DNA from: Acidobacteriota bacterium
Lineage (GTDB): Bacteria; Acidobacteriota; Terriglobia; Bryobacterales; Bryobacteraceae
Reading direction: 5' to 3'
DNA: 61,937 bases
NCBI GenBank assembly: GCA_005808475.1
Contig: SYLY01000099.1
Span: forward strand, 1-61,937
This document shows, piece after piece, positions 13,708 through 59,467 of this stretch; positions within the stretch are counted from its first letter, which is position 1, and every line of letters starts with the position of its first letter. The notes below the pieces were generated by a model, which made no database searches, had not been told where the DNA came from, and saw only the letters and a program-made list of their open reading frames with translations. A program made the translations under genes and the position numbers.

Positions 13708-13714
13708 TCGAACC

Positions 13715-15054: not shown

Positions 15055-15074
15055 ACGAACCGCGCCCGCATCAC

Positions 15075-16199: not shown

Positions 16200-16452
16200 A
16201 TTCGGTTCCTCCTGGTTCATGATTAGTAATGATTCGTGGTTCATCGCGCCCCGGACCGGGCTTCCTCCACCGCCGGCGCGGGCGGCGGCCAGAGCCGCGA
16301 AACCCACCGGTGGGCCGGTGAAGGATCGCGGCGGTTCGGCCCCGCGCAAGGCGTGGCGGCGGCTGCCCGTTCTCCGCCTTCCACCCGAAATCGAGCGGAA
16401 CGCCAAGAAAAAGCGGGAAACCCCGTCCGGGAACGGTTAGTTGGTCAGGCTT

Positions 16453-16529
16453 TGCCGGCCATGCAGCGGGATTCGAACCCGCAACTGTCGGAGCGAGGCT
16501 CCGATGCTCTATCCGTTGAGCTATGAGAG
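16453..16529 (-). tRNA. tRNA-like gene with aberrant acceptor stem and anticodon loop; identity uncertain
   Basis: Minus-strand read GCGCGGCCTCTCATAGCTCAACGGATAGAGCATCGGAGCCTCGCTCCGACAGTTGCGGGTTCGAATCCCGCTGCATGGCC. Canonical D-arm (TAGCTCAACGGATAGAGC) and T-arm (GCGGG-TTCGAAT-CCCGC). Anticodon stem TCGGA/TCCGA. The acceptor arms CCTCTCA / TGCATGG do not pair well by hand folding, and position 33 is not U. Confidence 0.5.
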
Positions 16530-16672
16530 GCCGCGCACTTCGAGACGCCCATACACGGGAGCCCATTGGGTCCGTGTGGGTAAGGCATGTCGAACCTTAT
16601 CCTTTGGCGAATGAAAGTCATAGCGGTGGCCTCAGGACTTAGTGTAAGGCCATTCGGACGCTTCTGTCAATA

Positions 16673-16706
16673 GGTAGCCCCACTTTTCAGTGGTGCTTTT
16701 TTTGGG
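16673..16706 (+). terminator. rho-independent terminator, plus strand
   Basis: GCCCCACT-tttc-AGTGGTGC stem-loop followed by TTTTTTT. Both flanking genes are on the minus strand. Confidence 0.5.
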
Positions 16707-16735
16707 CGAGTGGGTCCCGCTCCGTCAGTGCTCCG

Positions 16736-32111: not shown

Positions 32112-35100
32112 ATGAAGCTGCTTGCATTCGCGGTCCTCGCATCGGCGGCGGTCCACGCCCAATCGTCCACGGCGTCGCTCTCCGGCGTCATCACCGATCC
32201 CAGCGGCGCCATCATCCCCAGCGTGGACGTCGCCGCGCGGCACGTCGACACCAATCGCGGCTTCTCCGCGCGGACCGACAACGATGGCCGTTACAACCTG
32301 TTGACGCTGCCGATCGGGCGGTACTCCGTTTCCGCCACGGCGCAGGGATTCAAAACGCTGGAGCGCGAAGTGGAACTGACCGTGAACCAGTCGGCCAACC
32401 TGAACCTGCGGATGCAGGTGGGCCAGACCACGGAGGTGGTGGATGTCACCGCGCAGGCCCCGCTGGTGAATGCCACCAACTCCACCGTGGGGACGTTGAT
32501 GGAATCGCGCCAGGTGCTCGATCTGCCGCTCAACGGCCGCAACTTCACGCAGTTGATCGCGCTCACTCCGGGCGTCGCCAACGTTGACGTGTCGCAGGGA
32601 GGCGCGGGGCCGGCGGTGCAAGGCCAGCGCAACCGCAGCAATCTGTACCTCGCCGACGGCGTGATCAACTCGAACCTGGCGGGCAGCCAGATATCGGTTT
32701 CGCCGCCGCTCGACTCGATCCAGGAGTTCCGCGTGGAGTCGGTCCACAACGACGCCGAGTTCGGAGGCGCGTCGGGAGCTTACGTCAATCTCTCGACCAA
32801 AGCCGGGACCAACCGGCTTCACGGCACGGCCTACGACTTTCTCCGCAACGACGTGCTCAACGCACGCAATACGTTCCAGCCCACCGTGCCCAAGTTCCGT
32901 AACAACATCTACGGATTCTCGGTGGGCGCGCCGCTGCTGATTCCCAAGGTCTACAACGGCAAGGACCGGACGTGGTTCTTCGTCAGCCACGAAGGCGTGA
33001 AGAACCGCGCCTCGTCGTCGAGCATCACGCGGGTCGCCAACGCCGCCGAGCGGGCGGGCAACTTCGCCGGAACGGCCGTGTTCGACCCGTACTCGACGCG
33101 CTCCGATCCGGCGCGGCCCACGGCGTTCCTGCGCGATCCGTTCCCGGGCGGACAGGTTCCGGCGGCTCGTTTCCACCGCATCGCCGCGCGTTATCTCGCC
33201 GACTTCTCGCCGCTTCCCAACTTCACGCTGGCGGGCACGGTGAACAACTATCTGGTGACCGGGCCCAACAAGAGCGACACCGGAATCTGGGTGTTCCGCG
33301 TGGATCACACGTTGTCGCAAAAGGACCGCGTGTCGCTGCGGTCCACGCGGTCGGACGCCTCGTCGGAAAACGTGGGCATCTCGCCGGTGATCACGCTGGG
33401 CGTGAGCGACGTTCGCAACTGGAGCGCTGAATGGAATCGCATCATCTCGCCCACCACGCTGCTCACGGTGCGATACGGCTACAACCGCAACCGCTCCGAC
33501 AATTCGTACCGGAACGTGGAGAAGGTGTCGGAGTTCATCGGTTTCGCCGACTCGTATAACTCAGACGCGTTCTCGACGCGCATTCCAGATCGCGCGCTGT
33601 TCCCGGGCTATGGGATTCAGAACTACGCGGGCCTGGTTGGGACAGGCTACTCACCCACCGACAACTTCCCGCACTCCGGCGCGGTGAACCTGCAGAAGAC
33701 AATCGGCCGGCACTCCTTCAAAGCCGGTTTCAATCTGATGCACTTCGACTACTACACCAGCGGCATCTCGCAGACGCTGAACTTCACCGCGCAGCCGACG
33801 CAGAATCCGGCCGCGCCGGCGGGCACCGGCCAGCCGTTGGCGAGCTTTCTGCTAGGCGTGCCATCCAACGCCACCCGTCCGCTGGGAAATCCGGACATCG
33901 ACGCTCATGGTTGGATGTACGCTATCCACCTTTCCGACACCTTCCGGGTCAACGGCCGGCTGAGCCTCAACTACGGCGTCCGCTGGGACAAGAACGGGAA
34001 CTTCCTGTCGCGAAGCGGAACGATGGGGAGCTTCGACCGAACGACCGGAGCATGGCTGCTCGACGGTCCCATCAATATCCCCGGCGCGATCTTCCAAGGT
34101 CCCAACGTCCGGCGCGGCTTCGTCGATCCCGACTGGAACAACTTCTCTCCGCGGCTGGGCGCGGCCTACTCGATCACCCAGAAGACGGTGGTTCGCGCGG
34201 GCATGTCCACGTTTTACGAGATGTTCGCCGGCTGGTTGCAGATCGCGCAGGGCAACCGCAACGCATGGCCGCATTCCACATTTCAATCCACCGACACCCT
34301 GAACGCGACGGTTCCCACCGTGTTCATCGACCGGCCGTTCCGCGGTCTGCCGGACCGGGTGGACCGTCCGAATCCGTTCCCCTCGGCCGGCTATCATCTC
34401 AACCGCTTCTTCAAGACGCCCTACGTCCACGAGTGGAACGTGTCGGTGGAGCGCCAGTTCAGCGACCGTCTGGCGGCGTCGGTCACCTATGTCGGAGCGA
34501 AAGGCCGGACGCTCGAATGCTGCGGCCTGACGAACTATTCCACCGTTCTCGCCGCCGGCAACGCGCGGGCGCCGGAACGCGTCCCGTACCCGAACATGCT
34601 GGTGTTCCGCACCAACGACAACAGCGGCAGATCCGACTATCACGGGCTGCAAACCAAGATCGAGCAACGGTTCCACAACGGACTCTCGTTCTCGTTCAAC
34701 TACACGTTCTCCAAGTCGATCGATCTGGCGTGTTCGGGCTACATCGGCGCGGAAGGGTGCAATCTGCAGCAGCCCTACAATCTGTCCGCCGAGCGCGGCG
34801 TGTCCAGCTACGATCTGACGCATATCGCCAACGCCACGTTCATCTACGAGATCCCGTTCAAGCCACGCAACTACGCGGTGAACCTGATCGCCGGCGGATG
34901 GCAGACCAGCGGCATCCTGAACTGGCGGAGCGGACTTCCGTTGACGCCCGGTCTGGCCGTGGACAACGCGAACAACAGCGGCAGCCAGCAGCGTCCGAAT
35001 CTGGTGGGCGACGCGGGCCTGGCCGGGCAGAGCCGTCTGCGTTGGTTCAACACCGCGGCGTTCGCGCTGCCCGCCCGCTACACCTACGGCAACGCCGGCA

Positions 35101-35330
35101 GGAACATACTGCGCGGACCCGCGGCGGCCACGCAGAGCCTGTCGTTGTTCAAGAACTTCGCCGTGCTGCCCGAACGGCTGAAAGTGCAGTTCCGCTCGGA
35201 CTTCTTCAACGCGTTCAACCATCCGTTGCTCGGGAGTCCGGGGCTCACGTTCGACACGCCTACGTTCGGCCAGATCAACTCGGCGTCGGGCAATCGCACG
35301 ATCCAGATGTCGCTGAAGGCGATCTTCTGA
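32112..35330 (+). CDS. TonB-dependent receptor with N-terminal CarboxypepD_reg-like domain
   Basis: Signal peptide. SGVITDPSGAIIPSVDVAARHVDTNRGFSARTDNDGRYNLLTLPIGRYSVSATAQGFKT (CarboxypepD_reg), plug, and a 1072-aa beta-barrel with a C-terminal aromatic residue. Confidence 0.9.
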   Translation: MKLLAFAVLASAAVHAQSSTASLSGVITDPSGAIIPSVDVAARHVDTNRGFSARTDNDGRYNLLTLPIGRYSVSATAQGFKTLEREVELTVNQSANLNLRMQVGQTTEVVDVTAQAPLVNATNSTVGTLMESRQVLDLPLNGRNFTQLIALTPGVANVDVSQGGAGPAVQGQRNRSNLYLADGVINSNLAGSQISVSPPLDSIQEFRVESVHNDAEFGGASGAYVNLSTKAGTNRLHGTAYDFLRNDVLNARNTFQPTVPKFRNNIYGFSVGAPLLIPKVYNGKDRTWFFVSHEGVKNRASSSSITRVANAAERAGNFAGTAVFDPYSTRSDPARPTAFLRDPFPGGQVPAARFHRIAARYLADFSPLPNFTLAGTVNNYLVTGPNKSDTGIWVFRVDHTLSQKDRVSLRSTRSDASSENVGISPVITLGVSDVRNWSAEWNRIISPTTLLTVRYGYNRNRSDNSYRNVEKVSEFIGFADSYNSDAFSTRIPDRALFPGYGIQNYAGLVGTGYSPTDNFPHSGAVNLQKTIGRHSFKAGFNLMHFDYYTSGISQTLNFTAQPTQNPAAPAGTGQPLASFLLGVPSNATRPLGNPDIDAHGWMYAIHLSDTFRVNGRLSLNYGVRWDKNGNFLSRSGTMGSFDRTTGAWLLDGPINIPGAIFQGPNVRRGFVDPDWNNFSPRLGAAYSITQKTVVRAGMSTFYEMFAGWLQIAQGNRNAWPHSTFQSTDTLNATVPTVFIDRPFRGLPDRVDRPNPFPSAGYHLNRFFKTPYVHEWNVSVERQFSDRLAASVTYVGAKGRTLECCGLTNYSTVLAAGNARAPERVPYPNMLVFRTNDNSGRSDYHGLQTKIEQRFHNGLSFSFNYTFSKSIDLACSGYIGAEGCNLQQPYNLSAERGVSSYDLTHIANATFIYEIPFKPRNYAVNLIAGGWQTSGILNWRSGLPLTPGLAVDNANNSGSQQRPNLVGDAGLAGQSRLRWFNTAAFALPARYTYGNAGRNILRGPAAATQSLSLFKNFAVLPERLKVQFRSDFFNAFNHPLLGSPGLTFDTPTFGQINSASGNRTIQMSLKAIF

Positions 35331-45513: not shown

Positions 45514-48500
45514 ATGCTTCCACGCTTCGCGTTCCTATCCTTCGCGGTTTGCGCCTTTGCGCAGTTTGACACGGCGGTCGTGCTCGGTACGGTCAGAGAT
45601 CAATCGTCCAACGTAGTTCCCAGCACGGCGATTAAACTGCTCAATGTCGAGACGGGCATTCAGAGCGCAACATCGACCAACGAGGCCGGCGAGTACCTGT
45701 TTCTCAACGTCAAGATCGGCAAGTATAAAATCACGGCGCAGAAGGTGGGCTTCGCGACGGCGAATGCCGATGATGTCAGCGTCAACGTGAACGCGCGGCA
45801 ACGTTTGGACTTTTCACTGAAAGTCGGCCAAGTCACCGAGTCGCTCAATGTAACCGAGGGCGTTATCGCTGTCGAGTCCGATTCATCGGACCGCGGGCGT
45901 GTTGTTGGGCGCAAGCAGATCGTCGATCTGCCGCTCAACGGCCGCAACTACGCCGATCTCGCGCTGTTGACGACGGGCGTGCGGCCCGATTACGCCAACG
46001 CGAATCCGCCGCGCGAGGGCTCGTTCAATGTGAACGGGCAGCGATCGATCTTCAACAACTTTCTGATGGATGGCATGGACAACAATGCCTACGGTACGTC
46101 GAATCAGGGCTTCAGCAATCAGGTCGTCCAACTCACACCCGATGCCGTCGGCGAATTCAAAGTCGTGACTTCGAATCCGAGCGCCGAATTCGGGCGATCG
46201 TCGGGCGCGATCATCAACGCGACGATGAAGTCGGGCTCCAACGAGTTTCACGGTACGGCGTGGGAATATCTGCGCAACACGGAATTGAACGCGGTCGGGT
46301 TCTTCAAGCCTGCAACCGGCAAGCCGGTGTTTCAACGCAATCAGTTTGGCTTTACGTTGGGCGGGCCGCTCGTCAAGAACAAGGCGTTCTTCTTCTCGAA
46401 CTACGAAGGCTTCCGCGAGCGCCAGAAGTTCACGGAGTTCCGCACCCTGCCGACGATGGCCGATCGCACGGCGACGTTCAACATTCCGGTAACGAATCCG
46501 CTGACGGGCGCTCTGTACCCGGCGAACACGCCGATCCCGGCGACCGCGATCACGCCATTCGCGCGCACGGTGCTGAGCAACTTGCCCGCGCCGAACAACA
46601 ACACCGCGCGCGCGAACAACTTCGTGAATTTGCGCTCGGACAAGAACAACAACGACAAGATGGATCTGAAGCTCGACGGGCAGATCAACTCGCGCATGAC
46701 GGCGTTTGTGCGTGCGTCGCACCGCAAGTCGAACATCTTCCAACAGCCGGAGATTCCGGGGCCGTCGGGCGGCGAAGGCAACGGTTTCCTGCGCGTGCTC
46801 AATCAATCGCTCGCAACGGGCTGGACGAATGCGCTCACGCCGGCTTCGCTGCTCGAGGTGCGGTTCGGCGTATCGCGCACCAACGCCGGCAAGGAGCCGT
46901 TCGGACTGGGCGGGCCGTCGATGCGGTCGCTCCCTGGCATCACGGGGTTAAGCGAAGATCCGCGATTGACAGGTGGATTGACGCGGCAAGGGATCAGCGG
47001 TTTCTCGGATCTCGGCCGGCAGGCGACGAATCCGCAATGGCAGCATCCAACGGTTTGGAATCCGAAGGTCAACTACTCGTTCATCAAGGGCCGGCACTCG
47101 ATGAAGACGGGTTATGAGTATCAGCGCATCCACACCGAGATTCAAGACGTGAATCCGCTGTATGGCAACGATATTTACGCCGGGCAGTTCTCGCGGCCGG
47201 CGGGATCGGCGGCGCCGAGCGCGGCCGATTCGCAAGCTTACAATCTTGCCGACTTCCTGTTCGGCGCACGCAGCGAGTATCAGCTCGTCAACTTCTACAT
47301 CGCCAAGTACCGGCAGGTGATGAACTACTTCTACTTCCAAGACGACTTCAAAATCACCAGCAAACTCGCTCTGAATCTCGGCGCGCGGTATGAGTATGCG
47401 ACGCCGCAGTGGGAAGCGGGCAACGTTCTGTCGAACTTCGACCCGGTGACGAGCAAATTGATCGCAGCGAAGTCCGGCTCGATCGCCGGCCGCGCGCAGA
47501 TCAATCCCGACCGCAACAACTGGGCGCCGCGGTTGGGGTTCGCGTATTCGATGAATCCGAAGACGGTGGTGCGCGGCGGCTATGGCATCTCCTACATTCA
47601 CTTCAATCGCGCAGGCGGCGGCAATATTCTCGGCATTAACGGACCGCAGGTTGTGATCGCGGCGATTGCGCAGCGGCCGACAGATGCGTCGTTCCGGCCG
47701 ACGCAGGCGGGCTATCCGACGGGGCTCACCGATCCTGACAAGTTCAATCCGCTGTTGTCGAATATCTCCTACATTCCGCGCGAGTCGCCGACGGGCTACG
47801 CGCAGAACTGGTCGTTCTCTTTGCAGCGCGAGATTATGCGCAACACGGTGGTCGATATCGGCTATGTCGGCAACAACTCGAACCATCTGGTTGTCTTCGC
47901 CGACTACAACGAAGCGCGGCCGAACCGGCCGGGCGAGAACGCGTCGATTCAAGCGCGTCGTCCGAATCAGGCGTTTAGCGCGATCACGGTGACATTCCCA
48001 GCGGCCCGCGCGAACTACCACGCGCTGCAGGCGCGGTTCGAACGTAAGTTCACGAACGGCTTCAGCTTCCTGAATTCGTTCGTGTTCTCGAAGGCGATCG
48101 ATACGACGGGACAGGCGCTTGAAGCGCAGGGCGGTTCGGGCGGGCGGTCGAGCCCGCAGAGCTTCTACGCGCTGGGCGCGGAGCGCGCTGTGTCGGACTT
48201 CGATCAACGGTTCAACAATACGACGGCGGTGATTTACGAACTGCCGTTCGGTAAGGGCCGAAAGTACGCGAATCTGCCGGTGGCGGCGGACTACTTGCTC
48301 GGCGGCTGGCAGTTGAATTGGATTCACAGCATGTGGAGCGGGCAGCCGGTGAATCTCAGCTACACTCCCGCGGCGAATTTCCAGGTCTCGCAGACGTTGC
48401 CCGATTGGCGCGGCGGCATCAGCTATCGGCCGAATGTGACGGGGGACATCATGGTTCCCAAGAGCCAACGCAATCAGGACAATTGGATCGATGCGTCAAA

Positions 48501-48780
48501 AGTTGTGATTCCGACCGATCCGAGCCAGCCGTTCGGCAACGCCGGGCGAAACATCGCGCGGCGGCCCGGTTTGGCGACGGCCGATATCGGCATTCAGAAA
48601 TCGTTCGCACTGCCGTTCCGCGAGGGTATGGCGCTGCAGTTCCGGGCGGAATCGTTCAATGCGTTCAACCGGACGAACTTTGCGAATCCGCAGATGAACC
48701 GGTCCGGCGCGGGATTCGGGCAGATTCGGTCGACGTTCCCGGCGCGGCAAGTGCAGTTTGCGTTGCGGCTTTCGTTCTAG
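45514..48780 (+). CDS. TonB-dependent receptor with N-terminal CarboxypepD_reg-like domain
   Basis: Signal peptide MLPRFAFLSFAVCAFAQ. CarboxypepD_reg block (TVRDQSSNVVPSTAIKLLNVETG...GEYLFLNVKIGKYKITAQKVGF). 1088 aa ending ...LRLSF. Paralogue of the receptor at 32112. Confidence 0.9.
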   Translation: MLPRFAFLSFAVCAFAQFDTAVVLGTVRDQSSNVVPSTAIKLLNVETGIQSATSTNEAGEYLFLNVKIGKYKITAQKVGFATANADDVSVNVNARQRLDFSLKVGQVTESLNVTEGVIAVESDSSDRGRVVGRKQIVDLPLNGRNYADLALLTTGVRPDYANANPPREGSFNVNGQRSIFNNFLMDGMDNNAYGTSNQGFSNQVVQLTPDAVGEFKVVTSNPSAEFGRSSGAIINATMKSGSNEFHGTAWEYLRNTELNAVGFFKPATGKPVFQRNQFGFTLGGPLVKNKAFFFSNYEGFRERQKFTEFRTLPTMADRTATFNIPVTNPLTGALYPANTPIPATAITPFARTVLSNLPAPNNNTARANNFVNLRSDKNNNDKMDLKLDGQINSRMTAFVRASHRKSNIFQQPEIPGPSGGEGNGFLRVLNQSLATGWTNALTPASLLEVRFGVSRTNAGKEPFGLGGPSMRSLPGITGLSEDPRLTGGLTRQGISGFSDLGRQATNPQWQHPTVWNPKVNYSFIKGRHSMKTGYEYQRIHTEIQDVNPLYGNDIYAGQFSRPAGSAAPSAADSQAYNLADFLFGARSEYQLVNFYIAKYRQVMNYFYFQDDFKITSKLALNLGARYEYATPQWEAGNVLSNFDPVTSKLIAAKSGSIAGRAQINPDRNNWAPRLGFAYSMNPKTVVRGGYGISYIHFNRAGGGNILGINGPQVVIAAIAQRPTDASFRPTQAGYPTGLTDPDKFNPLLSNISYIPRESPTGYAQNWSFSLQREIMRNTVVDIGYVGNNSNHLVVFADYNEARPNRPGENASIQARRPNQAFSAITVTFPAARANYHALQARFERKFTNGFSFLNSFVFSKAIDTTGQALEAQGGSGGRSSPQSFYALGAERAVSDFDQRFNNTTAVIYELPFGKGRKYANLPVAADYLLGGWQLNWIHSMWSGQPVNLSYTPAANFQVSQTLPDWRGGISYRPNVTGDIMVPKSQRNQDNWIDASKVVIPTDPSQPFGNAGRNIARRPGLATADIGIQKSFALPFREGMALQFRAESFNAFNRTNFANPQMNRSGAGFGQIRSTFPARQVQFALRLSF

Positions 48781-49094: not shown

Positions 49095-49275
49095 AGTTCT
49101 TCCCGCGCCTCGGTTCGTCGAGTTCGAACATGTAGATGTCCTCGGGCTTGGCTCCGGGCTTCAGCAGCGCGATCTCCTTGATTGGTGGTCGTCGATCGAT
49201 TCCAGTTCTCGCGCGTTGAGCCCGTAGACGTCCTTGCTATGGCGCAGCCACTTGGCGGCACGCCAAAGCGGCGCG
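49095..49275 (-). pseudogene. degenerate partial duplicate of the beta-carbonic anhydrase 3' end
   Basis: Minus-strand translation AAKWLRHSKDVYGLNARELESIDDH.. then (frameshift) ..IKEIALLKPGAKPEDIYMFELDEPRRGK. These parallel [25 protein letters not shown]...[26 protein letters not shown] of the intact gene immediately upstream. Confidence 0.6.
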
Positions 49276-49313
49276 GCGCGCCGCCGGATCGTCTCATAAA
49301 CAATGTTGACGGA

Positions 49314-49955
49314 TCAGCGCTTGTCGCCGTAGTCGAAACGATAGATGTCGGCGACACTGGATCCCGGCGGCATGGAGGCGATCTCCTTCAAGTAGCCGCT
49401 GGTCAAGTCGTAGACCCAGCCGTGCAAGGTAGGCGCGCCCTCCTTATGCCAGGCCCGTTGCACAACCGACGTCTGGGCCAGGTTCTGTACCTGCTCATAG
49501 ACGTTGAGCTCCACGAGCCGGTCCCAGCGTGCCATGGGGTCGGCGATGGCCTCGATCTCGCGCTGATACAAACGGTAGACATCCTTGATATGCCGCAGCC
49601 ATTTATTGATCAGGCCCAGATCCTGCCGGTTCATCGCGTTCTTCACGCCGCCACAGCGGTAGTGCCCGCACACGATGATGTGCTTGACCTTCAACACCTC
49701 CACCGCGTATTGCAGCACGCTGAGCACGTTGAAATCGGTGTGCACCACCAGATTTGCGATATTGCGATGCACGAACAGCTCGCCCGGTTCCGCCCCGGTC
49801 ACATCCTCGGCCGGCACCCGCGAATCGGAGCACCCGATCCAGAGGAACTCCGGCGTCTGCGTCTCCGTGCGGCTGACAAAATAATCCGGCCGGATCTTGA
49901 GTTTTTCCTCAACCCAGCTCTTATTGGCCAATAGCAGCTTCTTGTGTGGTTCCAT
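49314..49955 (-). CDS. can: beta-class carbonic anhydrase
   Basis: Zinc ligands in CSDSRV...HxxCGG ([10 protein letters not shown]; [10 protein letters not shown]). Start taken at [14 protein letters not shown]. Confidence 0.9.
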
Positions 49956-49975
49956 GACGCTCTCTCCGTCCGCCG

Positions 49976-51526
49976 CTAGGGGGCGATCTCCCAATGTCTC
50001 AACTCCACGTGGATGTCGCGGAGCTGGGCCAACTTGCGGAAGTCCTCCACTACTTCCATGATGTCGTGGTCGATGTACAACGCCCGCGTGCCGTCGATAA
50101 TGACGTGCGAGTGCTTCGGCAATCGACGCAGCTTGCTTCGCAGTTCGCTTTTGTTGAGGAAGCTGGCGTCCTTGTTGAAACGCATCATGTAGTCTTTTCC
50201 ATCGCTCACCACGGTGATGGCGTCATGATGGTTGGTGCGCATCACGAAGAAGGCGCCGAAGGCCAGGCCGATCAGGACGCCGATCAGTAAATCGCTGAAG
50301 ACCACCGCCACTACCGTGACGATGAACGGGACAAATTGATCCATTCCCAAGCCGTACATCGAACGGTAGAGCGACAGGGGTGTGAGCTTCAGGCCGATCA
50401 CAATGAGGATGCCAGCCAGGCAAGCCAGTGGCACCAGCTTCAGGACTCCGGGAATCAGCATCACCGCCGCCAGCAACAGCAAGCCCTGCAGGAAGGAGCT
50501 CATCCAGGTGCGTCCTCCGGCATAGACGTTGGCGGATGTCCGCACCACGACCGAGGTCATCGGCAAGCCGCCGATCAAGCCGGAGACCAGATTCCCAACG
50601 CCCTGCGCACACAGTTCGCGATTCGGGGGGGAGATGCGCTTGAATGGGTCCAGCCGGTCGGCCGCTTCCAGGGACAACAAACTCTCGATGCTACCCACCA
50701 GCGCGATGGCGCCGGCAGCCAGCCATACCGTCTTGTTCGTCACGAAGGTGAGATCGGGAAGTGTAAACTGCCGGAAGAACTCTCCCGCATTGGCCGCCAC
50801 GGGCAGGTTCACGAGATGCTCCGGGTCCACCAACTGCCAGCCGTTGCCGGTCACGGCGAACAGTTGGTTCAGGCCGGCGCCCAGCAAGACGGCCGGCAGC
50901 GGCCCCGGCAGAATACGAAAGAGGCGTTGGCGGGAAGCCATCCAGTCCCAGGCGAACAGCAGCGCCAAGCTGGCCAGCGAGATGACGATCGCGCCGGGCG
51001 AGGCGCTCATGATGCCATCCGCGATGTCGCTCAACGTGTTGCTGCCCCCCGCTTCGAGGAAGCTGAAATCTCCCTCGTAGTCCTGGTCGCGGCCCAGTGC
51101 ATGGGGAATCTGCTTGAGGATGATAACGATGCCTATCCCGGCGAGCATGCCCTTGATCACGGAGTTGGGTACATAGTCGGCGATCGCGCCCAGTTTCACC
51201 GCGCCGAACGCAAATTGGATCAACCCCGACAACACCACGGCCGTCAGAAAACCCGGATACGACCCGATATCCCGGATGGCGCCGGCCGCGATGATGGCCA
51301 ACCCGGCGGCTGGTCCGCTCACGCTCACCTGCGAGCCCGACAGTAGGCTGACTACTAACCCGCCTACGATGCCGGCGATAATGCCCGCGAACAGCGGCGC
51401 GCCGGAAGCCAGCGCGATTCCCAGGCAGAGCGGGAGCGCCACGAGAAAGACAGCGACGCCGGCCGGTCCGTCGTGCCCCAAGTTCGCCCGTACCGCATCG
51501 GAAGCGGGGCGGCTTTCAACCGACAT
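49976..51526 (-). CDS. SulP family inorganic anion (bicarbonate/sulfate) transporter with STAS domain
   Basis: SulP N-terminal motif [17 protein letters not shown], multi-TM, C-terminal STAS. Lies 20 bp upstream of can on the same strand. Confidence 0.9.
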
Positions 51527-52482
51527 ATGAAGTCTCCTCCCGTACCCCGGCGGCGATGGCCGAAGTACGCTCCTTGATTCGAATTAGTCGTGAAAAATCA
51601 AGACCGGTAGGAGGGAGGAGCGCGCCCACGATCTCGCACCCGGTACCCGGCGCGCGTGGCGGGAAACACGGCCGGGTTCGACCCCGGCCCGAACATGGGA
51701 GCGCCCGGGGCCTGCCCAGACGCGACGGCGTCCGCCGGCGGCGTGACGAATACCGGCAAATAGGCCGAATCCCCCTGGGCGCAATGGGCCTGGGCGCGGC
51801 TGGCAGTCGGGAGCGAGCAAGACCGCCGCCGCCAAAACAACTCGTCCTCGAGAGGCGCGGCGCTCAGGGCGCCGAGCAAAAGCGCGATGGCCAGGAGGGT
51901 GCGCCGGGGCGATACCACCCATCGAGTGTATCAGGCCGCCGCCCGGTGCGAAAGACCTCGACGGACGAATCGGCGAGTTGATATCCTGAAAGCCGGTGCG
52001 GTCCACGATTCTCCTAGCCAAGCCCCGCCACTTCCGCGCACTCGGGCGCCTATTGCTGCTGGCGTTGCTGGCTTGTTCCTCGTTTTGGGTGGGAGAGACG
52101 GAGCCGGACGAACTGGGTTCGGTCCAAGCCGGAAGAGCGGCGTCGGAACGAACAAGGCGGCGGCGCGGCCGGACCGCCCATTCGGCGGACGCCCTCCGCA
52201 CCGCGAGCCACCACGTCTCCACGCGCGGGGAGTTGGTTTTCGAGGCGATCTGTCCCGGGTTGGCGCTCGAGACTACGGCCGATGGTGGCGGCGTGGCGCC
52301 TGCCAGCTTGCCGCTCGTGTCACGACCCGCCCGGACCGTTGGCTTCGATCGCGGTCCTCCGGCCCGCCTCGGGTAGTCCATCCATAGAATCTTCGGTCTT
52401 TTCCGGAATCTCCGGAACGCTCGCGCGCTTTTCAGCTTCCGCGGGCGGATTCGATATGTGTCTTCAAGCAAGGAGAGAGTTC

Positions 52483-54015
52483 ATGCAGCCCAAGTTCACC
52501 GGCGATATTCTGCCGTCCATCATCGTTTTCCTGGTTGCGCTGCCATTGTGCATGGGAATCGCCATCGCCTCCGGCATGCCGCCCGCGTCGGGCCTGATCA
52601 CCGGCATCATCGGCGGTATCGTCGTGGGCGTCATTGCCGGTTCGCCCCTTCAGGTAAGTGGACCCGCGGCCGGGCTCGCGGTCCTCGTGGCGCAGATCGT
52701 GCAGGAGCATGGGGTGAACGCCCTGGGCCCGATGCTCATCGTGGCCGGCGTCATCCAGTTCGGCGCGGGGATGTTCAAAACAGGCCAGTGGTTCCGCGCG
52801 ATCTCGCCCGCCGTGATCTACGGTATGTTGACCGGCATCGGCATCCTGATCTTCGCCAGCCAGTTCCACGTGATGCTCGACGACAAACCGGGCAGCAACG
52901 GTGTGATGAATCTATTGACCATTCCGCGCGCGCTCCACAACGATTTCAGCAAGGAAGGCTACGAGCAGCACCATGTGCCCGCCCTGCTTGGCCTGATGAC
53001 TATCACCACCCTGATGCTGTGGAACCGGTTCCGCCCCAAGGCGCTCAAAATGATCCCCGGCGCGCTGATCGGCGTGGTGCTGGCCACGGTTACGGCTCTG
53101 GTCTGGGACGCCAAGGTAAATTACGTCGACGTGCCCGCCAATCTGCTCGCCGCCGCTAACTGGATGTCGCTCGATCGCTTCGCCATTCTCACGAACAAGA
53201 GCGCCTTGATCTCGACGCTTACGCTCGCGTTCGTGGCCAGCGCCGAGACGCTTCTCTCGGCCGGCGCGGTGGATCGCATGCACGACGGCCCCCGCAGCGA
53301 CTACGACCAGGAACTGCGCGCCCAAGGCGTCGGCAATTTCCTGTGCGGAATCGCCGGGTCTTTGCCGATGACCGGTGTAATCGTGCGCAGTTCGGCCAAC
53401 GTGCTGGCGGGCGGCAAGACGCGCTGGTCGGCTGTGATGCACGGAGTCTGGATGCTGGCCTTCGTGGCGGCGCTGCCTTTCGTGCTGGAGAGGGTGCCCA
53501 TCGCATCGCTGGCCGGGATCCTCGTCTATACCGGTTATAAGCTGATGGATTGGAAGAGCGCCAAGGCCCTGGCCAAGTATGGCCACATGCCGCTTTGGAT
53601 CTTTGGCGCCACCGTGGCCGGGATTGTAGGTATCGACCTGTTGACCGGTGTCATACTCGGCATTCTGCTCTCGTTCGGCAAGCTGATTCAGACAGCGTCT
53701 CAGATTGACATCTGGGTGCAGCAGGGCGAAGACCAACAGCGTGCCGACGTCCATATCTCGGGCGCGGCGACTTTCGTGAAGCTGCCCGTGATCGCCCAGA
53801 CATTCCAGAAGCTGCCGCGCAACATCCAGTGCCACGTGCACTTCGCCGAACTGGTCTCCATCGATCACAGCGTGATGGATCTTCTTACCTCGCTCGAAGA
53901 CGAGTTCGAGAGAGGCGGCGGACGGCTGGTCACCGAATGGGACCACCTGCACGTGCGCCATGAGAATCTCATCCGTGGCACGCAGCAGCAGCAGGAAGAC
54001 AAGGTGTCCAAATGA
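52483..54015 (+). CDS. SulP family inorganic anion transporter with STAS domain (second copy)
   Basis: [18 protein letters not shown] motif. AGGAGA Shine-Dalgarno 7 nt upstream of the ATG at 52483. ATGA overlap with the DabA-like gene. Confidence 0.9.
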   Translation: MQPKFTGDILPSIIVFLVALPLCMGIAIASGMPPASGLITGIIGGIVVGVIAGSPLQVSGPAAGLAVLVAQIVQEHGVNALGPMLIVAGVIQFGAGMFKTGQWFRAISPAVIYGMLTGIGILIFASQFHVMLDDKPGSNGVMNLLTIPRALHNDFSKEGYEQHHVPALLGLMTITTLMLWNRFRPKALKMIPGALIGVVLATVTALVWDAKVNYVDVPANLLAAANWMSLDRFAILTNKSALISTLTLAFVASAETLLSAGAVDRMHDGPRSDYDQELRAQGVGNFLCGIAGSLPMTGVIVRSSANVLAGGKTRWSAVMHGVWMLAFVAALPFVLERVPIASLAGILVYTGYKLMDWKSAKALAKYGHMPLWIFGATVAGIVGIDLLTGVILGILLSFGKLIQTASQIDIWVQQGEDQQRADVHISGAATFVKLPVIAQTFQKLPRNIQCHVHFAELVSIDHSVMDLLTSLEDEFERGGGRLVTEWDHLHVRHENLIRGTQQQQEDKVSK

Positions 54016-56822
54016 GTCCAGGTCCGGCGCGCGACCGGTTGGAGGCGGTCCTGAACCATGAGGCCCATCTCTTGCCGGTGCAGGGGCCCATCGGGGTCTT
54101 CATCCACCACAATACGTTACACGCGTTTCAGCACCTGCCGTTCGAGCAGGCCGTCCGCGACGCCGCGCGGACCTTCGGCGCCGAACCGTTCATGGAAGAA
54201 CGAGCGTTCCGCGAGGCCCTCGCGCGCGGGCGCATTCTGCCCGAGGATCTCGACGCGGTGCTAGCCCGGGAACCGGACGTCGAACTGTGGTCAGGCGGCT
54301 TGACCCGCACGACGTTGCGCCGCGCCATGCTTTGGCCAGGCGTGGGGGATTTCCGGCCGGAGACCGTCGAGTGGGCGATCGCCGAAAGCCCCTTGGGCAG
54401 CGATCCGCGCCTCGACTTCTGCCTGCGGCATATGCCGGAGCCGGCGCCGGCCACCGCCGTCCGGCCCGTGCGCCCGCGCGACGGAGTGCTGGCCGCCGCG
54501 CACGCCGACATCGACGAAGTGGTGGAGCCCCACCTGATCAAGCTCTGCGCCGCGTTCCTCGACCAGGGGCTGGCGAACTGGCCCATGCCCTATCGCGAAG
54601 AAGGGTTTTGGCGCGCGACTCTACGGCTTCTCGCGCAGCCGGCGACGCTGACCGGAGGCGGCTTGCGCCGCCTCGACGAATTTGCGCGAATGGCCCGCCC
54701 ATGGGATGCGCCGGACGCTGTGTTGCACTGGCTCGGCTTGCTGGGCGTCGACGAGGACGACTGGCCGGGATTGATTCAAGCCGAGTTACTCGCCTTGCCG
54801 GGTTGGGCCGGCCTGATGCACACGCTCGAGCACGATCCCGCGCTGGCCCCGCACCACCGCGCGCCGGCCTCGTTGATGGATTTTCTCGCCGTGCGGCTCT
54901 TACTCACCGTCGCCGCCACCGCGAGCGTTACCGGGGATTTGACAAGCTGGCGGCTCACCAGGCCGCCGGCGGCCCCGCATCCGCGGGCCCAACTGGCGCG
55001 CGCCGCGACACTGGCGGACGCGATCGGGCTGGCCGGCCTGCCGTCGCCCGCGTTGGCCGCGCTTCCGGGGGACGATCGACGCCGGCTCTTCGCGGCCATT
55101 GAAGAGTTCGGCGCCTGGGAAAGAAGGCGGGTGTTACAACTGGCCTATGAGCGGCGGCACGAGCGGCAGGTGTTGTTGCCCCTGGCGGAGCATCGCCGCT
55201 CGTCTGTTCCGGCCACTCCGGCGCGAGCCGCCGCGCAGGTGATTTTCTGCATCGACGAGCGGGAAGAAGCCATCCGCCGGCACCTGGAAGAGACCGACCC
55301 GGGTATCGAGACCCTCGGCGCTGCGGGCTTCTTTGGCGCGGCGGTGAACTTCGCCGGCATCGACGATGCGCACGGCGTACCGCTGTGTCCCGTAGTGGTG
55401 AAGCCTCGCCACGCGGTGGAGGAACGCCCGGCGAAAGGTGAGGGCGAAGTCTATGCCCGGCGTCGCGCCTTGCGCCGCGTAGGCGGGCAACTGGTACGGC
55501 ACTGGTTCGTTTCGTCGCGGACGCTCCTGAGAGGCTGGCTGGGCACCGCGGGCCTGGGTTTGCTTTCGATCTTTCCGCTGGCGGCACGGGTGTTGAGCCC
55601 GCGCCTCCACGGCGAAATGGCCAAGCGTCTGTATGCCGCCTTCTTGCCCGAGCCGATCACGGAACTGGCCTTCATGCGCGACGGCGCGCAGGGGCAAGTA
55701 GCCGAAGGAGGCTTGCTGCGGGGCTTCACCGTCGAGGAGAATACCGACCGCGTCACCGCCGTGCTCGGCGCGGCGGGGCTCCGCCAGGGTCTGGCGCGGC
55801 TGGTGACTGTGCTGGGGCACGGTTCCACCAGCCTGAACAATCCGCACGAATCGGCTCACGACTGCGGCGCCTGCGGCGGACGCCGCGGCGGACCGAACGC
55901 ACGGCTCTTCGCGGCCATGGCCAATCACCCGGACGTACGGACGCAGTTGCGCGAGCGCGGCCTGGAGATCCCCGCCGACACTTGGTTCGTGGGCGGCTAT
56001 CACGACACATGCAGCGACGATATCGACCTGTTCGACTTGAACTTGGCGCCCCCGGCGCACGCCGCCGACTTGCTTCGCGTCCGCGCGGCGCTGGACCGGG
56101 CCAGAGCCCTCAGCGCTCACGAGCGCGCGCGGAGGTTCGAAGCCGCCTCCTATTCGCTCGACGCCGCGGGTGGCTTGCGGCACGCGCAGGTACGCGCGGA
56201 ACATCTCGCCGAACCGCGCCCGGAGTACGGACACTGCACCAACGCCGTCTGCATCGTTGGCCGGCGCTCCACCACGCGTGGCCTGTTCCTCGACCGCAGA
56301 GCGTTTCTGGTCTCTTACGATGCCTCGCAGGATCCGGAGAACCAAAGCCTCGCGGCGCAATTGGGCGCGGTGGTGCCGGTCTGCGGAGGCATCAGTCTCG
56401 AATACTACTTCTCGTTCGTCGACAACGAAGCTTACGGCTGCGGCACCAAGCTGCCCCACAACGTGACCGGGTTAGTGGGTGTGATGAATGGCTATGAAAG
56501 CGACCTGCGTACCGGGCTACCTTGGCAGATGGTGGAGATCCATGAACCCGTCCGGATACTCTTTGTCGTGGAGTCGTCTCCCGAACGAGTGCTCGATACC
56601 ATGCGCAAGAATCCGCTCGTGTGGGAGTTCCTGGTCAACCGCTGGATCCGGCTGGCCGTGCTCGACCCAGCGGGCGGGCCGCCACTGGCCTATCGCGATG
56701 GCGCGTGGGAGCCGGTGGAAGGCGGCGATGTGCCATTGCCAGTCGCGCCATCGTCCATGTCGTGGTATGCCGGCCGGCGTGAGCATCTTCCCATCGCCCG
56801 CATCCAGGGGGCCGCTGCTTGA
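54012..56822 (+). CDS. dabA: DabA-like protein (DUF2309; putative inorganic carbon transporter subunit)
   Basis: 936 aa. N-terminal VQGPIGVFIHHNTLHAFQHLPFEQAV resembles the conserved DUF2309 block as I recall it. Followed by NuoL-family membrane subunits, as in DAB operons. Confidence 0.65.
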   Translation: MSPGPARDRLEAVLNHEAHLLPVQGPIGVFIHHNTLHAFQHLPFEQAVRDAARTFGAEPFMEERAFREALARGRILPEDLDAVLAREPDVELWSGGLTRTTLRRAMLWPGVGDFRPETVEWAIAESPLGSDPRLDFCLRHMPEPAPATAVRPVRPRDGVLAAAHADIDEVVEPHLIKLCAAFLDQGLANWPMPYREEGFWRATLRLLAQPATLTGGGLRRLDEFARMARPWDAPDAVLHWLGLLGVDEDDWPGLIQAELLALPGWAGLMHTLEHDPALAPHHRAPASLMDFLAVRLLLTVAATASVTGDLTSWRLTRPPAAPHPRAQLARAATLADAIGLAGLPSPALAALPGDDRRRLFAAIEEFGAWERRRVLQLAYERRHERQVLLPLAEHRRSSVPATPARAAAQVIFCIDEREEAIRRHLEETDPGIETLGAAGFFGAAVNFAGIDDAHGVPLCPVVVKPRHAVEERPAKGEGEVYARRRALRRVGGQLVRHWFVSSRTLLRGWLGTAGLGLLSIFPLAARVLSPRLHGEMAKRLYAAFLPEPITELAFMRDGAQGQVAEGGLLRGFTVEENTDRVTAVLGAAGLRQGLARLVTVLGHGSTSLNNPHESAHDCGACGGRRGGPNARLFAAMANHPDVRTQLRERGLEIPADTWFVGGYHDTCSDDIDLFDLNLAPPAHAADLLRVRAALDRARALSAHERARRFEAASYSLDAAGGLRHAQVRAEHLAEPRPEYGHCTNAVCIVGRRSTTRGLFLDRRAFLVSYDASQDPENQSLAAQLGAVVPVCGGISLEYYFSFVDNEAYGCGTKLPHNVTGLVGVMNGYESDLRTGLPWQMVEIHEPVRILFVVESSPERVLDTMRKNPLVWEFLVNRWIRLAVLDPAGGPPLAYRDGAWEPVEGGDVPLPVAPSSMSWYAGRREHLPIARIQGAAA

Positions 56823-57051
56823 GCGAGATACGCGTGCCGCCGCCACGCCCGGCGAGCCGGCCGGAAGCAGGTGGACATACGCCTGGCTTTCGAACACCGT
56901 GCACGAGCGCGGCGGCCCCGCCAACGACGCACGGCAAGCGATGGTATGCCGCCGGCCGGAAATGCCGGCCAAGTCTTCCAACTAGCGGCCTCCGTTCGAT
57001 GAAACCTCCGTCGCTTCACATCGCCGCCGGCCTTGCCCCGGAGGCCGCCGC

Positions 57052-58344
57052 ATGATGGAAACTCTGCTGCTTGCCATCGTCGCCACGCCCGGCGTCACGT
57101 TCCTCGCGCTAGGCTTCTGCTGGCTCGCCGGATGGACGCCCACCGAGCGCTTCGTGTCGCGCGTGACAGCCGTCGCCTTCAGCCTGCTGACGGCGGGCGC
57201 CGCCTGGCTCGCTTGGCTGATGTTCGCCGCGGGCGTCGTTAGCGTGCGAATCTCGCTCGGCGAGTGGTTCCGCGCCGGCGGCTATCACTTCCCGCTTGCC
57301 CTCCAAGTCGACCGCCTGTCGCTCCCGATGGTCGCCATCACAGCGGTGCTGGGCGGACTGGCCGGATCGTTCTCGGTCCGCTATGTGCATCGCGACCCCG
57401 GCTTTTTCCGCTTCTTTCTCCTGCTGAATCTGTTTGCGTTCGGCGCGATCACCGCGTTTACCGCCGGTTCGTTCGATCTGCTGATCGGGGGCTGGGAACT
57501 CGTCGGCGTGACGTCCGTCCTGCTGATCGCCTTCTTCGGCGACCGGCCCGCGCCGGCCCGCAACGCCGTCCGCGTCTTTGCCAGCTACCGCATCGCCGAC
57601 ATAGGCATTTTGCTGGCTAGCTTCGTGCTGCATCACGGCGGCTCAACCTTGTTCACGCCGATGCTGCCGGGCGACTGGCCCGGCCAAGGTTCCCGTCTTG
57701 CGGCGCCGGACGCGTTACTTGCGGGCTTTCTGCTGCTGACCGCCGCGTCGGGCAAATCCGCGCAAGGGCCCTTCGCCGGTTGGCTGCCGCGGGCCATGGA
57801 AGGCCCCACGCCGTCCAGTTCCATCTTCTACGGCGCGATTTCCATTCATCTGGGCGCCTACCTGTTGCTGCGGTTCGAGCCGGTGATTCAAAGCGCGCCG
57901 CCGGTCGCCTGGGCCACCGTGATCGTCGGCGCATTGACGGCCCTCACCGGTACCGCCTCGCATCGCGTCTCCTCCGACGTGAAGACCTCGCTGGCCTATG
58001 CCTCCATGACGCAGGTGGGCGTCATCTTCGTCGAGATCGGTCTCGGCTATCCACGCCTGGCGTTGTGGCACATTGTGGGCCATGCCGTGGTGCGCACTCT
58101 GCAACTGCTGCGCGCGCCGTCCATGCTGCACGACTATCACAAGATGCATGCGGCCGTCGGCGGAGACCTGCGGCCCACCGGGCAATGGATGCCGGCCGTG
58201 CTGCCCATGGGCCCGCGGATGTGGCTCTACCGGTTCGGGCTGGAAGGCGGCTTCTACGACGCCTGGCTCGACCGGCTGGTGATCGCACCGGTGTTGCGCC
58301 TTGCGCGCGCGCTGTCTGGACGGAGCAAAGATGCTCCAGCTTGA
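57052..58344 (+). CDS. dabB: NuoL/MnhA-family proton-translocating membrane subunit (DabB-like), 430 aa
   Basis: Polytopic. PF00361-like core (GWELVGVTSVLLIAFF..., WLPRAMEGPTPSSSIFYGAISIHLGAYLLLR). Confidence 0.7.
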   Translation: MMETLLLAIVATPGVTFLALGFCWLAGWTPTERFVSRVTAVAFSLLTAGAAWLAWLMFAAGVVSVRISLGEWFRAGGYHFPLALQVDRLSLPMVAITAVLGGLAGSFSVRYVHRDPGFFRFFLLLNLFAFGAITAFTAGSFDLLIGGWELVGVTSVLLIAFFGDRPAPARNAVRVFASYRIADIGILLASFVLHHGGSTLFTPMLPGDWPGQGSRLAAPDALLAGFLLLTAASGKSAQGPFAGWLPRAMEGPTPSSSIFYGAISIHLGAYLLLRFEPVIQSAPPVAWATVIVGALTALTGTASHRVSSDVKTSLAYASMTQVGVIFVEIGLGYPRLALWHIVGHAVVRTLQLLRAPSMLHDYHKMHAAVGGDLRPTGQWMPAVLPMGPRMWLYRFGLEGGFYDAWLDRLVIAPVLRLARALSGRSKDAPA

Positions 58345-59467
58345 TTCGCTCGCCCTCGTCTCGATGGGCTCCTTCCTGCTGCTGTTTGCGGTCACGGTGT
58401 TAGCCGCGCCTCGTCGCGACCGCACCGGCGCGGCTCGCCTGGAACTAGCCGCTCTGCTCGCCGGCACGCTGCTGGCCTATGCCGCCGCGGCCCTGCCGGT
58501 GTTTCTCGCCGGCTGGGCCCTTACAGTGTGGCCCTCCTGGCGCGGCCAAAGTCGAGGGGCGCGCCTGGTGCTGGCGGCTAGCACCGTTCTGCTGGCCGGT
58601 GGCGCGGCGCTGATGTCCCATCCTCCCGTGGCGTTCGTGGCCTTAGCCGCCGCCGTGCTGTTGCGCAAAGGCATCTTCCCCTTTCACCGCGCCACGCTCG
58701 GCGCCTTCGAACGGATGCCGCTGCCCGCGGTCGGCCTGACGCTCAATAGCCACCTCGGCGGCTACTTACTGATCCGGTTTGTGATTCCGCGCTTTCCCGC
58801 GTTGTCCGCCGAGTGGCTGCCGCACCTGAGCATCCTGGCGCTGGTCACGTCGGTGTTCATGGCGCTGGCCGCGCTCGGCGAACGTCAACCCCGCCGGTTG
58901 CTCGGCCTGCTCTGGATCAGCCAAGGGTCGTTCATCCTGGCCGGGCTCGCCACCAATTCGCAGGCGGGCATCACCGGCGCTCTGATGCAGTGGTGGGTCG
59001 TGGCCTTCGCGATGACCGGTATGATGTCGGTCTACGCCTCGCTCGAGGCACGCACCAGCAGCGTGCGGTCGCCAGACGAGTTCCTCGGCTTGGCGGCGCA
59101 TGCCCCTCGCCTCGGGGTCTTCTTCACGATCTGCGGACTCGCGCTGGTGGGTCTGCCCGGCACCTTGGGCTTCGTCGCCGAGGACCTGCTGTTCCACGGC
59201 GCGCTCGAAGCGCATCCGCTGCTGGGTGTCGCACTGCCGGTGGCTACCGCCTTGAACGCGATTTCGGTGCTCCGCTTGCTGGCAACGCTCTTCATGGGAC
59301 GGCGGGCCATCCACGTACCGCCGGTCCCCGATGCTTTGCCTCGGGAGCGCCTCGCGCTGTCGCTGGCCGTTGGCTTGCTGATTTTCGGCGGGCTGATGCC
59401 CGCGCTTCTAATTGCGCTCCGTACACCATCGGCTGAGGCCTTAACCAAAGCAATATCGGGTAAATAA
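58331..59467 (+). CDS. second NuoL/NuoN-family (PF00361-like) membrane subunit, 378 aa
   Basis: Polytopic antiporter-like protein. ATG at 58331 gives a 14-nt overlap with the preceding gene. Confidence 0.65.
   Translation: MLQLDSLALVSMGSFLLLFAVTVLAAPRRDRTGAARLELAALLAGTLLAYAAAALPVFLAGWALTVWPSWRGQSRGARLVLAASTVLLAGGAALMSHPPVAFVALAAAVLLRKGIFPFHRATLGAFERMPLPAVGLTLNSHLGGYLLIRFVIPRFPALSAEWLPHLSILALVTSVFMALAALGERQPRRLLGLLWISQGSFILAGLATNSQAGITGALMQWWVVAFAMTGMMSVYASLEARTSSVRSPDEFLGLAAHAPRLGVFFTICGLALVGLPGTLGFVAEDLLFHGALEAHPLLGVALPVATALNAISVLRLLATLFMGRRAIHVPPVPDALPRERLALSLAVGLLIFGGLMPALLIALRTPSAEALTKAISGK

Follow-up and report, generated by a model that had tools for sequence, protein, structure and literature searches.

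A putative DAB-type CO2-hydration locus with a short NuoL-like DabB and a NuoM-like third subunit in an Acidobacteriota genome

The window analyzed here covers positions 1 to 61,937 of contig SYLY01000099.1 (assembly GCA_005808475.1) from an Acidobacteriota bacterium of the Bryobacteraceae, and its segment from 49.3 to 59.5 kb consists of two divergent gene groups that we relate to the DAB family of energy-coupled CO2-hydrating systems. The minus-strand group encodes a SulP anion transporter (SulP-1) and a beta-class carbonic anhydrase (beta-CA), and the plus-strand group encodes a second transporter (SulP-2), the catalytic subunit DabA, a short NuoL-like DabB and a NuoM-like protein, which we call the third subunit (Table 1). 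The codon-position GC content was coding-like for all six genes (GC1/2/3 of the real genes, 0.60-0.73/0.36-0.52/0.80-0.83), and the nearest relatives of the locus genes are found in metagenome-assembled genomes (MAGs) of Bryobacterales and Bryobacteraceae.

Table 1. Genes and spacers of the putative DAB locus, in window coordinates.
Feature	Size	Position	Strand	Evidence
Beta-class carbonic anhydrase, Can-like	213 aa	49314..49955	-	PF00484 E=6e-55
SulP-1 anion transporter	516 aa	49976..51526	-	PF00916 E=1e-58
Divergent spacer between the SulP operons	956 bp	51527..52482		Without convincing gene
SulP-2 anion transporter, first gene of the plus-strand operon	510 aa	52483..54015	+	PF00916 E=2e-61
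DabA, cytoplasmic beta-CA-like catalytic subunit	936 aa	54012..56822	+	PF10070 E=5e-236
dabA-dabB spacer	229 nt	56823..57051		Sequence reading
Short NuoL-like DabB	430 aa	57052..58344	+	PF00662 + PF00361 E=8.5e-33
NuoM-like third subunit	378 aa	58331..59467	+	PF00361 E=1.3e-23

An earlier note on this DNA, made from the letters alone, had proposed the same gene content (a beta-CA, two divergent SulPs, a DUF2309 protein and two PF00361 proteins), which was borne out by significant profile matches for all six genes. The start that it gave for the region lies 219 nt beyond the carbonic anhydrase stop codon. Two of its gene calls were real genes with misplaced starts: SulP-2 begins at 52483, where it is backed by a strong AAGGAGAG Shine-Dalgarno sequence, and not at 52282, and the last gene begins at ATG 58331 and not at TTG 58301. 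The 378-aa product from ATG 58331 is identical to the public gene call, and this start overlaps the preceding dabB stop by 14 nt. The ATGA shared by the SulP-2 stop and the dabA start is present in the sequence, as had been noted. The beta-CA gene, 20 nt downstream of SulP-1, has its own GGAGAGAG Shine-Dalgarno sequence, and the dabB ATG is preceded by GGAGG. The description of the transporters as SulP/STAS proteins holds for the PF00916 core, which is significant; the STAS-like C-terminal regions were weak matches below the Pfam cut-offs (E=1e-3 and 4e-3).

Two DAB systems of known structure serve as references in what follows. DAB1, from Halothiobacillus neapolitanus and Thermocrinis albus, is a three-subunit system (DabA1-DabB1-DabC) seen by cryo-electron microscopy (cryo-EM) as a heterotrimer (bioRxiv 10.64898/2026.05.01.722082), and DAB2 of H. 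neapolitanus (PDB 9rd0; Nat Commun 2026, PMC13144422) has two subunits, of which DabB2 is a protein of 551 aa with 15 transmembrane (TM) helices whose TM1-11 superpose on NuoL. The window DabA matched PF10070, the DUF2309 profile against which the earlier note had wished it to be checked, with 786 bits over profile positions 3-747 of 747; no NCBIfam model matched it. It is 30% identical to H. neapolitanus DabA2 (PDB 9rd0_A, E=2.8e-71), and the four residues of its Zn site, C413 (codon at 55248), D415 (55254), H603 (55818) and C618 (55863), align with C351, D353, H524 and C539 of that protein. These columns are invariant in an alignment of the window DabA, three acidobacterial relatives and H. 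neapolitanus DabA2, so that the Zn ligands, whose conservation the note had proposed to test, were found to be conserved, and judging by these residues DabA would be catalytically intact. A hydrophobic stretch at about 501-531 (hydropathy peak 510-528), conserved in the relatives, stands at the place of the membrane-inserting elbow or finger motif of DAB1 and DAB2.

In DabB, the PF00361 match stopped early (profile positions 10-229 of 294) and the NuoL model was aligned over positions 2-367 of 615. By phmmer the protein matched genuine NuoL with 4e-40 and, less closely, H. neapolitanus DabB2 with 9e-24. The AlphaFold2 (AF2) model (pLDDT 86) shows confident TM helices up to residue 353, followed by low-confidence charged helices, and its top Foldseek match was E. 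coli NuoL, with about 360 aligned columns. DabB is made of NuoL-like TM1-11 and a tail of about 70 aa, lacks TM12-15 and, with its 430 aa, departs from the roughly 550 aa and the TM12-15 of known DabBs (DabB1, 559 aa; DabB2, 551 aa). Because the region after TM11 measures 71-127 aa in 58 of 58 short DabBs, this shortening is a property of the family; the 430-aa query had 3832 matches, with thousands of relatives at 420-468 aa. E149 (TM5), K235 (TM7), H266 (TM8), H340 and R348 (both TM11) are invariant in the 58 short DabBs, and H344 (TM11) is kept in 56 of them. The TM11 Lys of T. albus DAB1 (K316) is replaced by Arg in the window DabB.

The third protein matched the NuoM model at positions 208-484 of 486, with weaker alignments reaching back to about 140-170, and PF00361 over profile positions 84-289. 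Its AF2 model has a pLDDT of 95.9, and the best Foldseek matches were NuoM, ND4 and NdhD, with TM-scores on the query of 0.85-0.90; the second best was NdhD3 of NDH-1MS, the complex for CO2 uptake in cyanobacteria (6tjv_D). It is colinear with NuoM from about TM4 to TM14, and the N-terminal 100-140 aa, roughly TM1-3, are absent. The 378-aa query retrieved a family of 604 relatives of about 380 aa. The corresponding gene of Blastocatellia and Planctomycetota encodes about 470-500 aa and in the Blastocatellia locus L017 it has full PF00361 coverage (1-291 of 294); relative to such a full NuoM-like subunit, the 378-aa form is shortened at its N terminus. The open reading frame (ORF) of the third gene starts within the end of dabB in 17 loci, overlapping its stop by 4 or 8 nt.

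When the third subunit was aligned to Paracoccus NuoM, the TM7 Lys fell on R112, which is followed by K113, the TM8 Lys on H141, the TM10/11 His on Q198 and the TM12 Glu on E284, which is followed by D285, and the 'WE' Glu of TM5 was found as 'WA'. We take the TM7, TM8 and TM12 positions to be those of E. coli K234, K265 and E407. In 114 relatives of the window's clade, conservation lies at 91-100% for R112, K113, H141, E284 and D285, and in a cross-phylum set of 48 sequences R112 is present in 47 and an acidic residue at position 285 in all 48. As read from these alignments, the third subunit retains a buried Arg/acid pair throughout, with a fuller polar axis in Acidobacteriota. The pair could have a structural role as an ion pair, or it could relay charge electrostatically to the TM5 Glu of DabB, as at the M-L junction of complex I.

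The distribution of the three genes was examined by a DabA-alignment scan of one genome per GTDB species, which yielded 80 loci, followed by tblastn with the window proteins; synteny was counted in the 60 loci with a DabA at least 38% identical and at least 3 kb of downstream sequence, and phyla were taken from the record titles. The trio of DabA, short DabB and NuoM-like protein is present in 57 of the 60 loci: 28 in Planctomycetota, including the cultured Gemmata algarum JC673 and Tautonia sp. JC769, 12 in Acidobacteriota, seven in Verrucomicrobiota, three in Myxococcota/'delta', two in Armatimonadota and one in Bdellovibrionota, with four unplaced. In the three relatives viewed in context, DabA (about 950 aa), the short NuoL-like protein (427-451 aa) and the NuoM-like protein follow in that order. 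In abundant heterotroph phyla of soil and freshwater, the trio subclass appears to prevail among DAB forms. As for the exceptions, locus L061 (a 'Spirochaetaceae' MAG, 8001-18023) has the short DabB and NuoM-like gene 4-7 kb downstream on the opposite strand, and no PF00361 partner lies within the fetched flanks of L055 and L059.

Two further arrangements were seen in these comparisons. Bryobacteraceae-type loci (L001:11174-13127, L002:11174-13121 and L004:9067-11014) have a HisKA_3-type kinase and a LuxR/GerE regulator directly after the trio, possibly a dedicated two-component system responsive to inorganic carbon; in the window this pair is absent, and MerR-DnaJ-DnaK follow the trio instead. 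Nitrosomonas sp. Nm132 (NZ_FNDH01000003.1, L079:2428-11867) has a 1093-aa DabA among four PF00361 genes, with a 490-aa NuoM-like protein encoded upstream of DabA and, after it, a 523-aa DabB-type protein, in which PF00361 reaches only profile position 225, and two more, full NuoM-like proteins of 539 and 501 aa. Going by these genes, it would be a DAB whose antiporter-like arm has four modules.

A bridging form of the membrane module was found in Methylococcales/Crenothrix (L083:10514-12388; also L074, L075, L077, L082 and L085-L088), where DabB has 595-668 aa and combines NuoL-like TM1-11 with a C-terminal domain of about 200 aa. Residues 1-421 of a 624-aa Methylococcales DabB are colinear with the whole window DabB (35% identity, E=1e-72). 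The C-terminal domain has the TM12 motif GFPITPAFLSEDILL, compared with GLPGTLGFVAEDLLF in the window third protein, and its acidic motif (G/S)ED is invariant. Comparison of the fused-domain family with the third-protein family by hhalign gave 96.7% probability and E=4e-10 over third-protein residues 179-329, and against PDB the fused-domain profile matched NuoM (7.5e-4), NuoN (2e-3) and ND4, and not NuoL, ND5 or DabB2. A search of 1.84 billion proteins with this profile for a free-standing DabC returned 354 matches, which were fusions of about 605-640 aa or pieces of about 210-235 aa explained as contig-end truncations, frameshifts or orphans. Locus L090 was discarded as a natural split into a DabB and a small protein, as its two ORFs together read through the fused sequence, with a change of frame between them. 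In L095:4899-5956 and L096:1943-3000, orphan ORFs of 127 and 230 aa homologous to the fused domain occur with no DabA nearby; their neighbor, on the opposite strand, is a NuoA-like gene (PF00507), and they may be a relic. A reduction series from the full NuoM-like protein to the 378-aa form, the half-size fused domain and DabC is supported by these sequence comparisons but not proven.

Genomic evidence strongly links SulP transporters to DAB genes. Of the 57 trio loci, 28 have a SulP gene in the fetched flanks, in an upstream co-directional, upstream divergent or downstream position, and coupling of the SulP stop to the dabA start was found in six other loci, as ATGA in L009, L020 and L076 and as TGATG in L023-L025. 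The two window transporters are 33% identical to each other. Pairs of a SulP-1-like gene and a carbonic anhydrase gene stand beside the DAB loci L012, L013, L016, L017, L019, L083 and L094, and the window beta-CA narrowly missed the Can equivalog NF007756 (236.7 bits, cut-off 251). L094:1-8367 (JGI 3300044699, a frameshift-rich sequence of distant Methylococcales type) contains a beta-CA, a SulP, a DabA, a fused DabB and another SulP, which is convergent and has a clear STAS domain; this suggests that the set of a carbonic anhydrase, two SulPs and a DAB arose or was kept more than once.

We consider it likely that the plus-strand operon sulP2-dabA-dabB-(nuoM-like) encodes a vectorial carbonic anhydrase of the DAB type, driven by the proton-motive force (PMF), with a NuoL-like/NuoM-like membrane pair and a DabC-like third subunit, and that the SulPs and the carbonic anhydrase handle HCO3-. 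DAB-type gene content accompanied by SulPs and a beta-CA had been recognized in the earlier note, and the DabA match and Zn ligands agree with it. In such a system, DabA would hydrate inward-diffusing CO2 to HCO3- at the buried Zn site, and directionality would come from proton flow through the membrane module, inward flow gating one-way hydration. The membrane module would be a pair formed by a DabB ending after TM11, with an axis of TM5 Glu, TM7 Lys, TM8 His and TM11 His/His/Arg, and by the NuoM-like subunit. The three proteins would form a DAB1-like heterotrimer, with the NuoM-like subunit in the NuoM position next to DabB, where DabC is located in the T. albus DAB1 structure (bioRxiv 10.64898/2026.05.01.722082), the DabB cytosolic tail corresponding to the one that in DAB1 contacts DabA near the active-site cysteine, and the DabA elbow filling the space of the absent TM12-15. 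The TM7 Arg and TM12 acid, together with K113, H141 and E284 in the window's clade, may stabilize the complex or extend a relay to the DabB TM5 Glu. SulP-2 and the SulP-1/beta-CA pair would move and equilibrate HCO3-, with the SulPs importing it and the beta-CA acting under other conditions, and the product would feed the HCO3--dependent carboxylases of a probable heterotroph.

A number of observations weigh against parts of this proposal. Arginine, at the position of the TM7 Lys, is a poor proton carrier, and for this reason a complete second proton channel in the third subunit is doubtful. Across phyla, K113, H141 and E284 are found in only 20, 19 and 21 of the 48 sequences. As described, DabC is Pfam-negative and has hydrophobic residues in place of the proton path, whereas the third protein is PF00361-positive and keeps conserved polar ones, and its role may differ. 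A cytosolic beta-CA would dissipate the HCO3- disequilibrium if both divergent operons were co-expressed. The transporters, finally, missed the BicA equivalog NF050096 by a wide score difference (141 and 121 bits against 880), and the solved structure nearest to SulP-2 is that of the fumarate transporter SLC26Dg (2e-30), ahead of BicA (5e-21). These last two results, and scores that are also below the DauA and generic SulP equivalog cut-offs, would suit ordinary sulfate or dicarboxylate permeases located here by chance or regulatory convenience. We regard this as improbable, since SulP genes accompany the trio in several phyla and in three arrangements, overlap dabA by start and stop codons in seven lineages and, for the SulP-1 type, are paired with a beta-CA here and at seven other DAB loci, and the same association was found independently in 2017 (PMC5700660).

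More improbable still is a role of the locus in pH or ion homeostasis, in which SulP would import HCO3-, DabA would dehydrate it with consumption of a cytoplasmic proton, CO2 would leave the cell and the NuoL/NuoM pair would export or exchange ions, or in which the complex would act as an MpsAB-like Na+/HCO3- symporter. Klimchuk et al. (2017; PMC5700660) proposed that an exergonic reaction drives ion export, with more membrane subunits for more ions, and MpsAB has itself been proposed as a Na+/HCO3- symporter; the tight operonic coupling to an anion transporter and hosts belonging to acid-soil and peat lineages would be compatible with such a mode. However, both 2026 structures and the earlier experiments with carbonyl cyanide m-chlorophenylhydrazone (CCCP) back PMF-dependent hydration only, external HCO3- is scarce at acidic pH, and the catalytic and coupling residues of hydration-type DABs are all conserved in the window.

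The kinship of DabB to genuine NuoL rather than DabB2, and of the third protein to NuoM/ND4/NdhD and MrpD, raises the question of whether the two genes are the membrane arm of a complex I, an Mrp antiporter or a hydrogenase that merely stands beside dabA. This is very improbable. NuoA-K, NuoN and MrpB, C, E, F and G (the partners sought being NuoA, H, J, K and N and these Mrp proteins), whose proximity the earlier note had named as telling against a DAB, are absent from the 10 kb downstream, covered by a 115-kb contig of the same organism, and from the 10 kb upstream in the window; the pair is syntenic with DabA in 57 of 60 loci, DabB has neither TM12-16 nor the long lateral helix needed in those complexes, and the third protein has neither TM1-3 nor the TM5 Glu. 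That the two ORFs are one DabB broken by a frameshift or assembly error, for which a 14-nt overlap in different frames and the frameshifted DabBs of L090 (another assembly) and L094 might speak, can practically be dismissed, because several independent contigs encode the very same products of 430 and 378 aa, each protein represents a conserved length class, the Pfam profile ranges (10-229 and 84-289) overlap and do not abut, one protein is NuoL-like and the other NuoM-like, and both genes are kept as separate ORFs in 57 loci across phyla. Both proteins encoded at 57052..59467 did match the PF00361/NuoL profiles, as the earlier note expected, but its 'split DabB' proved to be two separate conserved families, one spanning NuoL-like TM1-11 and the other NuoM-like TM4-TM14, approximately.

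Returning to the PMF-driven DAB, the third subunit, judged by its position and NuoM ancestry against the published description of DabC, would be a counterpart of that protein that is longer and less degenerate. A more far-reaching proposal, which we put forward only tentatively, is that the trio is a distinct, ancestral-type DAB class dominant in Planctomycetota, Verrucomicrobiota and Acidobacteriota. Here, proton flow would be coupled to the hydration of CO2 by a complex-I-style L-M antiporter pair in place of a single DabB; DabC would have the NuoM-like subunit as its precursor (from about 490 aa to 378 aa, to a fused domain of about 200 aa and to the small DabC), with the TM12 acid of this subunit facing the DabB TM5 Glu in a relay; and SulP would be a fourth component, for uptake of both CO2 and HCO3-.

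Regarding the remaining sequence, the SulP genes are separated by a 956-bp spacer, an unusual length for a divergent promoter region, in which no Rfam family was found. The public annotation has a 265-aa ORF in this spacer (51584..52381, minus strand), which we considered as a possible gene or regulator and rejected: its GC1/2/3 (0.68/0.68/0.71) is non-coding-like, its translation is rich in R, P, G and A, it has no Pfam or NCBIfam match and no homologue in 88 loci, and it is probably not a gene. The dabA-dabB spacer of 229 nt is far longer than that of the relatives (about 10-100 nt) and holds no ORF and no Rfam match, with an unremarkable RNA fold (z=-1.4). Scanning 48.5-61.9 kb for Rfam families, sigma-70 promoters and terminators gave nothing above background. 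The other window genes are housekeeping genes (ligA, rseP, dxr, dnaJ/dnaK) and genes for TonB-type outer-membrane proteins, and no RuBisCO or carboxysome genes are present within the window. Two large TonB-dependent-type outer-membrane proteins with CarboxypepD_reg and OMP_b-brl_4 domains, of 1088 and 1072 aa, are encoded at 45514-48780 and 32112-35330; such proteins are typical for Acidobacteriota and would fit a heterotroph that scavenges polymers. A DAB locus had been thought unexpected in a heterotroph, a view that does not stand, because heterotrophs with DABs are well known.

Outside the cyanobacteria, DAB complexes are the main CO2 pumps, and they are candidates for equipping crops and industrial microbes with carbon-concentrating mechanisms. 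The coupling mechanism and the role of DabC have been answered differently by two 2026 cryo-EM papers, and the trio subclass is a natural experiment that bears on proton entry, on the purpose of DabC and on the origin of DABs from complex I/Mrp modules. Its apparent prevalence also matters for dark CO2 fixation and for anaplerosis in soils, and the recurrent, translationally coupled SulP suggests a partnership of CO2 hydration with anion transport.

Among known systems, SulP-carbonic anhydrase pairs and fusions and the BicA-type SulP bicarbonate transporters resemble the minus-strand group, in which SulP-1 is followed by beta-CA after 20 nt, and they resemble both window SulPs in the PF00916 core, here followed by a short STAS-like tail. 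The window SulPs differ from BicA-type transporters in their far lower equivalog scores and in the sub-threshold STAS region. NDH-1MS (NdhF3-NdhD3-CupA-CupS; PDB 6tjv) is likewise a NuoL-type and NuoM-type pair that carries a cytoplasmic, Zn-dependent vectorial CO2 hydratase, but CupA is unrelated to DabA and the complex is part of a redox-driven complex I. At the locus there are no Ndh/Nuo core genes, the ndhF3 model TIGR01960 reached only 116 bits, with a cut-off of 589, and the sole soluble partner is the PF10070 protein, not one of CupA/ChpY type, so that the likeness is one of analogy and not of membership.

Compared with DAB2, the window locus has a homologous DabA with identical Zn ligands and a DabB homologous over TM1-11. 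Unlike the window locus, DAB2 consists of two subunits, has a 15-TM DabB2 with a short lateral helix, and has neither a NuoM-like partner nor a SulP.

The gene neighborhood itself is not new. It had been taken in the earlier note for an architecture outside the described standards, but Klimchuk et al. (2017; COGNAT, PMC5700660) reported that ybcC/DUF2309 genes upstream of a nuoL homologue frequently have COG0659 (SulP) and COG1008 (NuoM) nearby, and their 'clade C' ybcC (COG3002/DUF2309) neighborhoods have the same gene set and order as the window. That work predates the assignment of DabA function and does not deal with the DabB truncation, the third-subunit residues, the relation to DabC or the SulP coupling. 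Beyond it, we found no description in the DAB literature of a DabA with a PF00361 NuoM-type third subunit.

Also among the closest known systems is DAB1, which shares with the window a DabA of the PF10070 family that has a beta-CA Zn site and an elbow, a NuoL-like DabB proton axis and a NuoM-related third membrane subunit that is encoded with DabB and sometimes fused to it; in Aquificae, the annotation has the two joined in one protein. [quoted passage not shown] DabB1 is a 559-aa protein with TM12-15, and the window DabB ends after TM11. The 50 DabA1 operons of the 2026 DAB1 study all belong to Proteobacteria and Aquificae, the DAB1 hosts being chemolithoautotrophs, whereas the trio is found in Acidobacteriota and bacteria of the Planctomycetota-Verrucomicrobiota-Chlamydiota (PVC) group, and the window locus, in contrast to DAB1, also has an operonic SulP. 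Read from its genes, the locus would belong to a large DAB-family variant, and what is new in it is a DabB without TM12-15 and a third subunit that can be seen as a long, Pfam-detectable counterpart of DabC.

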